A DNA stretch of 64,000 bases, taken from the NCBI GenBank assembly GCA_964369695.1, contig CAYJGL010000002.1:35-64034 (forward strand), written 5' to 3'. Numbering within the stretch: the first letter of the stretch is position 1; every line of letters begins with the position of its first letter. The position numbers and the translations under genes are program-made. The notes beneath the pieces were generated by a model, which was given only the letters and a program-made list of their open reading frames with translations, ran no database searches and was not told the origin of the DNA. This document shows, piece by piece, positions 45,023 to 45,265 of this stretch. This DNA is from an uncultured Clostridium sp. Lineage in GTDB: Bacteria > Bacillota > Clostridia > TANB77 > CAG-508.

Positions 45023-45265
45023 CTATATTAAAGGATTATAGAATAATAATAAAAATACAAATGCAAATAATAATAATAGAAATACTGCTAAAACAATTAA
45101 TATTGTCATTATAGAATGTACTATATCTGATTTGGTTTCAGGATTTCTTCCTACTGCTTCTGCAACTTTAGAACCTAAAATTCCCATTCCTAATCCTATT
45201 CCTAAAAAAGTACAACCTACCATTATACCTACACAATAAAGTGTTGCTACTAATATTTGTTCCAT
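45023..45265 (-). CDS. atpE: F-type ATPase c-subunit-like proteolipid lacking the ion-binding carboxylate
   Basis: 80 aa hairpin. Helix 1 and loop [22 protein letters not shown] match the c-subunit pattern GIGILGGKFLEGAARQPD. Helix 2 ([27 protein letters not shown]) contains no Asp or Glu. GGAGG Shine-Dalgarno present. Confidence 0.8.

Follow-up and report, generated by a model that had tools for sequence, protein, structure and literature searches.

The closest described systems appear to be those of mycoplasmas, whose F1-like systems are treated by Beven et al. 2012 (PMC3369863). A Type 2 F1-like ATPase has been proposed to drive the giant Gli proteins in the gliding of Mycoplasma mobile (Toyonaga et al., 10.1101/2024.06.11.597861), and the surface MIB-MIP system, which cleaves antibodies, depends on a Type 3 F1-like X0 ATPase (Berlureau et al. 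2025, 10.64898/2025.12.04.692339). The Type 3 enzyme is encoded in a seven-gene cluster without c, which includes a protein with 12 transmembrane (TM) helices and an 87-kDa membrane protein, and its alpha subunit lacks the N-terminal delta-binding helix. The Type 2 enzyme of M. mobile forms cytoplasmic twin-motor chains with PGK, its beta subunit has a long N-terminal extension, c is likewise missing, and Fo-like partners presumably carry the rotary motion across the membrane. Here we analysed a window of 64,000 nucleotides (nt) from an uncultured Clostridium sp. (GenBank assembly GCA_964369695.1, contig CAYJGL010000002.1, positions 35 to 64,034 of the forward strand), in which a homolog of the ATP synthase c subunit devoid of its ion-binding carboxylate is encoded together with an F1 of its own and giant surface proteins. 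We propose that this gene cluster encodes an ATP-hydrolysing F1-type motor on an ion-blind c-ring, the output of which is directed at the surface proteins, a reading to which we give slightly better than even chances. The mycoplasma F1-like X0 ATPases would then be its closest functional analogues. These mycoplasma systems are said, in an abstract on them, to be without a known equivalent in other bacteria, and in M. mobile the genes of the surface proteins lie at a separate locus.

The gene at the centre of this analysis encodes a protein of 80 amino acids (aa):

45023..45265, minus strand: c-subunit homolog, 80 aa (match to PF00137, alignments with c subunits in the PDB, conserved loss of the carboxylate)

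An AGGAGG ribosome-binding site lies 7 nt 5′ of its ATG. The protein matches the Pfam profile PF00137 (ATP-synt_C) with 32.9 bits (gathering cut-off 24, E 7.7e-8) over profile positions 3–59 of 60, and two distant variants, P0217 and P0142, reach 40.6 and 32.2 bits, respectively. When PDB sequences were searched with phmmer, the best matches were the c1/c2 subunits of Acetobacterium woodii (4bem; E 3.7e-7 for c2), and matches were also obtained to spinach c (E 5e-6) and to Ilyobacter tartaricus c (1yce, E 3.1e-5; residues 18–79 of the query on 23–84 of the chain, an offset of 5). The alignments with A. woodii and spinach c, where printed, were free of gaps. Helix 1 retains the packing motif G22-x-G24-x-G26-x-G28 and is followed by the polar loop R40-N41-P42; both are invariant across the c-like family, save for substitutions that each occur in one sequence only, among a few metagenomic members. 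At its C-terminus the protein reads LLFYNPL, similar to the ending LLFANPF of spinach and A. woodii c. The scores remained below the cut-offs of the NCBIfam equivalogs for F0 subunit c, with 34 versus 71 bits for the best of them, NF005363, and 24.6 versus 43.95 bits for TIGR01260. An earlier note on this DNA, made without database searches, had claimed that helix 1 and the loop align with c subunits, and the Pfam match and the PDB alignments bear this out.

In these alignments, with the loop at R40-N41-P42-E43, the residue Ala60 within IVLAVF occupies the carboxylate position of spinach E61, I. tartaricus E65 and E. coli D61. The further residues of the I. tartaricus Na+ site, mapped by the offset of the printed coordinate ranges, are all replaced by hydrophobic ones, namely Q32 by M27, S66 by V61, T67 by F62 and Y70 by L65. 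Beyond D47, which stands at the cytoplasmic end of helix 2, the protein contains neither Asp nor Glu; an Asp equivalent to D47 is presumably present in canonical c subunits as well, judging by a manual comparison with the I. tartaricus sequence. The earlier note had counted 17 residues past the RNPE loop to reach an Ala in VLAVF and had seen no acidic residue in helix 2. Both statements hold, as the Ala is Ala60 of the PDB alignments and no acidic residue follows D47. At the level of sequence we regard it as confirmed that 45023..45265 encodes a real c-subunit homolog of ATP synthase which has lost its ion-binding carboxylate. Because the only c gene of the cluster has no such site, a homomeric ring would not hold any, and very probably the c-like ring does not translocate ions. 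To our knowledge, every characterised rotary ATPase ring carries the coupling ion on a ring carboxylate.

The loss is not confined to the window. A database search yielded 1485 homologs of the c-like protein, and residues were counted in the best 120 (78–100% identical, from many independent assemblies). None of these 120 has an acidic residue at the carboxylate position, which is Ala in 119 and Ser in one, and their helix-2 segment is nearly invariant, consistent with extensive protein contacts around a ring. Orthologs from Lachnospiraceae have Thr at this position. In an exhaustive search of representatives at 50% identity, 22 clusters lacked an acidic residue in the segment aligned to residues 52–72, whereas the 18 canonical c representatives had exactly one Glu each in that segment; the two groups separated by score, with all top scores in the carboxylate-free group. 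Pairwise codon analysis of 27 orthologs gave a median ratio of nonsynonymous to synonymous substitution rates (dN/dS) of 0.15. Within the cluster no gene is better conserved than that of the c-like protein, with identities of 62–87% compared to 60–78% for alpha and 52–76% for beta, and its most conserved stretch is the cytoplasmic loop region. In canonical F1Fo this loop of c contacts gamma and epsilon.

A degenerate atpE remnant, or an artefact of sequencing or assembly, would explain the missing residue itself and nothing more. The same substitution is present in hundreds of independent assemblies, the gene is the best conserved of its cluster at a dN/dS of 0.15, and in 45000..45150 stop codons crowd both alternative reading frames, which leaves no frameshift that could restore a canonical helix 2. 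A sequencing error or frameshift is thus ruled out by the closed frames together with the conservation across homologs, and a pseudogene by the dN/dS value; this explanation is already refuted by the conservation data and its chances are practically nil.

Further downstream, the cluster encodes a complete set of F1 subunits:

42798..44129, minus strand: F1 alpha-like protein, 443 aa (PF00006, E 6.9e-73)
42020..42820, minus strand: F1 gamma-like protein, 266 aa (PF00231, 91.9 bits against a cut-off of 39.9)
40652..42016, minus strand: F1 beta-like catalytic protein, 454 aa (TIGR01039 atpD, 466.9 bits, just above the cut-off of 462.85)
40378..40662, minus strand: short epsilon-like protein, 94 aa (position after beta, conserved core in 25 orthologs, hhalign match)

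Read from its translation, alpha has the P-loop GDKKVGKT and the arginine-finger motif SVSRLGG and keeps its N-terminal helix, while its C-terminal domain is about 60 residues short; it stays below the NCBIfam atpA cut-offs (443.9 versus 554 and 404.6 versus 484 bits). In beta the Walker A motif GGAGVGKT, GERSREG and DELSEED are all intact, and its best match to a natural enzyme in the PDB is the Bacillus PS3-type beta with 376 bits, the M. mobile G1 beta reaching 317 bits. The 94-aa protein has no direct Pfam or other family match of its own. A profile of 25 of its sequences matched the epsilon of a distant variant cluster by hhalign (E 1.8e-4, probability 49%), and because that epsilon is itself Pfam-positive (PF02823, 39.1 bits), we read the 94-aa protein as an epsilon cut down to the beta-sandwich. 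The length of 82–104 aa across aligned orthologs indicates that the C-terminal helical domain is absent. In bacteria the C-terminal helices of epsilon inhibit ATP hydrolysis. Judged by its motifs, the alpha3beta3-gamma-epsilon assembly looks catalytically competent, and since these motifs are intact and the hydrolysis-inhibiting helices are missing, the enzyme is most likely a hydrolase only.

Two further genes bear on the question of an a subunit:

45333..46787, minus strand: 484-aa surface protein at the usual place of atpB, with an fn3 domain (26.9 bits) and a TM helix at the N-terminus
39744..40286, minus strand: 180-aa membrane protein with five helices (AF2 model, pLDDT 78.7)

The earlier note had observed that no a subunit adjoins the c-like gene and that a 484-aa surface protein takes the place of atpB. 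The latter is indeed such a protein and not atpB, and the former statement can be extended by sequence, profile and fold to the cluster as a whole. The 180-aa protein, modelled by AlphaFold2 (AF2) from an alignment of 36 sequences, is predicted to form five long helices with a mean predicted local distance difference test (pLDDT) score of 78.7. No Pfam match was found for it and its 36 relatives, its profile matched no PDB sequence, hhalign against E. coli subunit a gave a probability of 0.1%, and Foldseek with the AF2 model returned no PDB match at E < 1. As a diverged a subunit it was therefore rejected by Pfam, PDB profile, hhalign and Foldseek, and also because its position 67 is not an invariant Arg. 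A hydropathy count over the open reading frames (ORFs) of the window, most of which were not Pfam-scanned, showed no other protein of a-subunit size with 5–6 TM helices. Given the five negative tests and this count, we conclude that, as far as these methods reach, no part of the cluster encodes an a subunit.

Some charged positions of the 180-aa protein are conspicuous. Position 67, in the middle of TM helix 2, is always positive (Arg in 30 and Lys in 24 of 54 sequences), and position 128 is acidic in 52 of the 54, with His in the protein of the window; the c-like protein offers no partner charge. The stator Arg of a subunits is invariant. It may be asked whether ions are moved here without a c carboxylate, by way of the charges at positions 67 and 128 or through backbone or hydroxyl ligands on c. 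The membrane-embedded Arg/Lys67 does recall the stator arginine of subunit a, but Lys stands there in 24 of 54 sequences, unlike in the invariant original, and the protein resembles a neither in sequence nor in fold. Moreover, known rotary ATPases all carry the ion on a ring carboxylate, and around mid-membrane the c-like helix 2 is free of polar residues (A60, V61, F62, L65). We consider such cryptic coupling hardly credible.

Between the c-like gene and alpha, at the operon position of b and delta, lies a candidate for the peripheral stalk:

44147..45007, minus strand: 286-aa protein, composed of a TM helix at the N-terminus, a long helix/coiled coil and a conserved C-terminal domain (25 orthologs)

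A stalk role is suggested by this position, by the architecture of the protein and by the retained N-terminal helix of alpha. The AF2 model from the single sequence has a continuous helix at residues 2–77 and low confidence in the remainder (pLDDT 46.7 overall), and the C-terminus is marked by an invariant Y-D-Y-S-(I/V) across the 25 orthologs. These orthologs had no Pfam match (b would be PF00430, delta PF00213), profiles of the full-length protein and of the C-terminal domain gave nothing significant against the PDB, the similarity to PS3 subunit b was non-significant at E 0.79, and so were the hhalign comparisons with E. coli b and delta. A b-delta fusion is accordingly not demonstrated, as all similarities are non-significant and the AF2 model is too poor. 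The last 15 residues, with the consensus GIIIKYRNKIYDYSI, bear a non-significant resemblance (E 0.18) to the C-terminal motif GVIIRAGDMVIDGSV of E. coli delta/OSCP; the counterpart in one distant variant cluster, L036, has an even more delta-like ending, GGAIFEDNYFLIDLS, again without significance.

The cluster is widespread. When one genome of each GTDB species was scanned, 27 loci emerged, some of them truncated and a few with orthologs that escaped detection. They come from metagenome-assembled genomes of uncultured Clostridia from the gut of humans (Hadza, Nepal), chicken and rabbit, and from Lachnospiraceae, namely Candidatus Choladocola, Lachnoclostridium, Hungatella and the cultured Kineothrix alysoides KNHs209, for whose motility or phenotype we found no accessible description in the literature. 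One close c-like homolog is assigned to Candidatus Merdicola faecigallinarum. Gene order is the same throughout the 27 loci and in many metagenome contigs, as far as their genes are present, and every locus examined has its own F1, the stalk candidate, a single c gene and no a gene.

This constancy bears on the possibility that the c-like protein assembles with a canonical c into a mixed ring, or that an a subunit is borrowed from an ATP synthase encoded elsewhere, so that the enzyme would still be an ion pump or synthase. A mixed ring would tune the ion-to-ATP ratio, as the site-deficient c1 hairpin of A. woodii does; we rate this tuning, like the borrowing of an a subunit, as very unlikely. 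The best PDB match is indeed to the A. woodii c1/c2 ring, in which a carboxylate-free hairpin naturally occurs, and because the loci alone were examined, canonical atp genes may exist elsewhere in these genomes. On the other hand, the A. woodii variant shares its operon with a normal c and with a, whereas the cluster here combines a complete F1 and a stalk candidate with one c gene and no a throughout, and its constant partners are surface proteins, not bioenergetic genes.

These partners are, besides the 484-aa protein, the following:

46800..52367, minus strand: 1855-aa surface protein, encoded by the first operon gene and carrying a TM helix at its N-terminus (TM prediction, orthologs)
38905..39699, minus strand: 264-aa protein with a single TM helix, a basic tail at the N-terminus and a conserved ectodomain (TM prediction, orthologs)
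28685..38875, minus strand: 3396-aa giant protein, anchored by one TM helix near residue 45 and another near residue 3349

With TM helices at both ends, the 3396-aa protein should have both of its termini in the cytoplasm. Its central region consists of GLUG-type beta-helix repeats, and residues ~1737–1923 match PDB entry 3n6z (E 2.8e-5), deposited as 'putative immunoglobulin A1 protease'. That match is a curious one beside the immunoglobulin protease system of the Type 3 ATPase, but what is matched is a structural repeat and not a catalytic site. It is also the sole match of the giant proteins, for which Pfam and NCBIfam returned nothing; the 1855-aa protein had no match in Pfam, NCBIfam or the PDB. 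In both the 1855-aa and the 484-aa protein conservation is highest in the N-proximal region, and the two have a membrane-proximal ectodomain in common (hhalign E 2.6e-5, probability 75%, ~77 columns). This likeness in sequence suggests paralogous modules placed beside the membrane and the motor. Orthologs of the 3396-aa protein flank the cluster in most related loci that reach far enough, at a position that varies between upstream and downstream of the remaining cluster.

In the window all these genes form an operon of 11 genes over ~23.7 kb (28685..52367, minus strand), with intergenic gaps of 12–91 nt and some overlapping genes. The order is 1855-aa, 484-aa, c-like, 286-aa, alpha, gamma, beta, 94-aa epsilon-like, 180-aa, 264-aa and 3396-aa protein. 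Its ends may be marked by two elements:

52393..52421, minus strand: candidate promoter-like site TAGAAA-17-TATAAT, 10 of 12 matches, 5′ of the first gene
28623..28653, no strand assigned: G+C-rich hairpin with a 14-bp stem, likely operon terminator, just 3′ of the last gene (1 found versus 0.0 expected in shuffles)

The G+C content of the window is 25%, and at this composition promoter-like matches are merely ~2x as frequent as expected from shuffling. The T-run of the hairpin was scored on the plus strand only, and a terminator function on the minus strand is our interpretation.

Two distant variant clusters, traced from carboxylate-free c-like genes, show which of these features persist. 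In L038, whose c-like protein is 29% identical, proteins of 2446, 1984 and 751 aa are followed by c, a 336-aa protein, alpha, gamma, beta, epsilon and two small proteins; the 2446-aa protein has adhesin-type Pfam matches, and epsilon matches PF02823 with E 2.3e-5. In L036, with 39% identity in c, a 312-aa protein stands between c and alpha, gamma and beta come next, and epsilon (PF02823, 39 bits) closes the row; in place of giant proteins, numerous shorter ORFs of surface type, rich in repeats, lie around this core. The linkage to giant proteins is hence kept in one of the two. Comparing the accessory proteins of both variants with those of the window by hhalign gave no signal. Together, the variants and the synteny identify the combination of a carboxylate-free c, an own F1, no a and surface proteins as an old and robust association. 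The surface region of L036 is split into ORFs of 38–624 aa (1..9800 and 15800..20255), two of which, of ~65 aa, resemble detached N-terminal TM anchors. This fragmentation could be due to frameshifts, phase variation or assembly errors in repeat-rich genes.

The 80-aa protein would form the c-ring of a rotary ATPase that derives from F1Fo, has diverged from it and has abandoned ion translocation. The ring would assemble through the GxGxGxG motif of helix 1, while the RNPE loop would dock gamma and epsilon. Hydrolysis of ATP would turn gamma, epsilon and the c-ring against a stator consisting of the 286-aa stalk protein and perhaps the 180-aa protein with its five TM helices. The TM anchors of the 1855-, 484-, 264- and 3396-aa proteins may receive the torque or conformational cycle inside the membrane, so that cytoplasmic ATP would power an event at the surface. 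Candidates for such an event are adhesion and release, surface movement and the remodelling of a surface layer. As a ring without ion-carrying residues adjoins giant surface proteins, the complex probably burns ATP to operate these proteins and not to make ATP. The earlier note had argued that a ring unable to bind ions cannot be coupled to a gradient and that any rotation must be driven by ATP for some other output. This argument is supported by the hydrophobic site under purifying selection, the intact F1 motifs, the epsilon without inhibitory helices, the failure of every test applied to recognise the other polytopic protein as an a subunit, and the linkage to giant membrane-anchored proteins. 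For rotation, the stator roles of the 286- and 180-aa proteins, the coupling to the surface proteins and the physiological output we infer what these genes make plausible.

The same genes might instead encode an assembly that does not rotate, with a c-like oligomer as a membrane anchor or platform and the F1 head as an ATP-dependent switch or as a factor for assembly or quality control of the giant proteins. For such an arrangement speak the lack of an a-like stator partner, the unproven identity of the 286-aa stalk and the consideration that a ring without ion site needs no rotor-stator interface. Yet gamma and epsilon persist, as does the RNPE coupling loop of c, all three strongly conserved; alpha retains the N-terminal helix that binds delta in canonical enzymes, and a protein with a TM segment plus a long helix stands at the b/delta position. 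Because these features suit a rotor-stator machine rather than a simple anchor, we think a static function improbable.

Several points weigh against an ATP-driven surface motor. Expression, assembly, ATPase activity and rotation are considered here from genes alone. The co-transcription with the surface proteins is deduced solely from short intergenic gaps and conserved order, and Pfam, NCBIfam and the PDB revealed no informative catalytic domain in the surface proteins. For the 286-aa protein, homology to b or delta is not demonstrable by sequence and the AF2 model is poor, and the modelled 180-aa protein is without an assignable fold relative. Finally, the loci alone were examined, and a canonical F- or V-type ATPase elsewhere in the genome could share its a or c.

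The operon is embedded among ordinary chromosomal genes, with greA and ackA (both by sequence resemblance) and pta (Pfam) on one side and a phosphoribosyltransferase/double-zinc-ribbon protein, the domains of which recall ComF, and a KAP NTPase on the other. The latter, a KAP-family P-loop NTPase of 661 aa (25884..27869, minus strand), lies ~0.8 kb downstream of the operon end, past the phosphoribosyltransferase/zinc-ribbon protein. A complete-looking spoIIIA operon (57703..63171, minus strand) with AA, AB, AC/AD, AE, AF, a 213-aa gene at the position of AG, and AH is found ~5 kb from the ATPase cluster and identifies the host as an endospore former, which the low G+C content further places as a low-G+C member of the Clostridia; no link to sporulation is implied, since the neighbours of the cluster differ in other genomes. 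Elsewhere in the window, two proteins of ~500 aa with 10–11 predicted TM helices (864..2357 and 21619..23178, minus strand) have similar N-termini (…KYGIIF/ILG…ICQ.FLQMH…) and look like paralogous polytopic membrane proteins.

Compared with known systems, the cluster shares with the canonical Firmicute F1Fo (Bacillus PS3, 6n2y) the order alpha, gamma, beta, epsilon and a beta that passes the atpD cut-off, and with canonical c subunits the GxGxGxG hairpin, the R(Q/N)P loop and the C-terminus LLF(A/Y)NP. Unlike the canonical enzyme, it lacks the carboxylate, a, a recognisable b or delta and atpI, its epsilon is without C-terminal helices, its alpha is ~60 aa shorter, and it is embedded among genes of giant surface proteins. 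That a carboxylate-free hairpin still folds and sits in a ring is illustrated by c1 of A. woodii (4bem) and by the duplicated V/A-type c/K subunits. In the rings of A. woodii and of V/A-type enzymes only some hairpins are site-less, the ring carries ions and an a subunit is present; we know of carboxylate-free hairpins only alongside ion-binding hairpins and an a subunit. N-ATPases were rejected as relatives by their NCBIfam alt_F1F0 profiles, with 412.2 versus 752 bits for beta, 368.2 versus 750.5 for alpha, 47 versus 282 for gamma and 17.4 versus 130.85 for c; the ORFs of the cluster show no additional small membrane-protein genes, although no search aimed at atpR/atpQ was made.

The mycoplasma Type 3 system (MSC_0618/0619) resembles the cluster in its extra set of alpha, beta, gamma and epsilon, the lack of a, and the adjoining surface-protein genes. 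The differences are that the Clostridia cluster keeps c, the N-terminal helix of alpha and a stalk candidate, has a 5-TM protein in place of the 12-TM one, and belongs to a walled, spore-forming host. Its proteins missed the Type 3 NCBIfam cut-offs, with 404.5 versus 570 bits for MSC_0618_beta and 307.3 versus 520 bits for MSC_0619_alpha. A hydrolysis machine that serves the surface has been shown genetically for mycoplasma Type 3, whereas for the Clostridia it is a proposal alone. The Type 2 G1 of M. mobile (PDB 9io5) is likewise an F1-like motor proposed to drive giant membrane-anchored proteins (Gli349, Gli521 and Gli123). Here too the NCBIfam cut-offs were missed (389.8 versus 850 bits for glide_MMOB1670, 375.5 versus 600 for glide_MMOB1660), and the Clostridia beta is nearer to the ordinary Firmicute beta than to that of M. 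mobile G1 (376 versus 317 bits).

Neither the Clostridia cluster nor a carboxylate-free homomeric c-ring was found described in the full-text literature, where the mycoplasma work alone came up, in a search whose scope excluded most subscription journals. With chances a little short of even in our estimate, the cluster represents an undescribed class of surface machine powered by a rotary ATPase in walled, spore-forming gut Clostridia, in which F1 turns an ion-blind c-ring and the torque reaches giant proteins. If so, the output would be movement, force-dependent adhesion or surface remodelling. A conserved site-less c without a would be a natural uncoupled rotor, an F1-c-ring module recruited for mechanical work. 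As the cluster occurs in the cultured K. alysoides KNHs209, the function of an ion-less rotary motor can be tested directly.

What sets the cluster apart from the known surface-repurposed F1 motors is its ion-blind c-ring, widespread in gut Clostridia. The idea of F1-like surface motors, so far tied to gliding and antibody cleavage in mycoplasmas, would thereby extend to abundant Clostridia of the human and animal gut. Since the c-ring and a stalk candidate are still present, the cluster may form an evolutionary bridge, and it could be an ancestral-type intermediate, composed of F1, c-ring and adhesins, to the c-less F1-like X0 motors of mycoplasmas.

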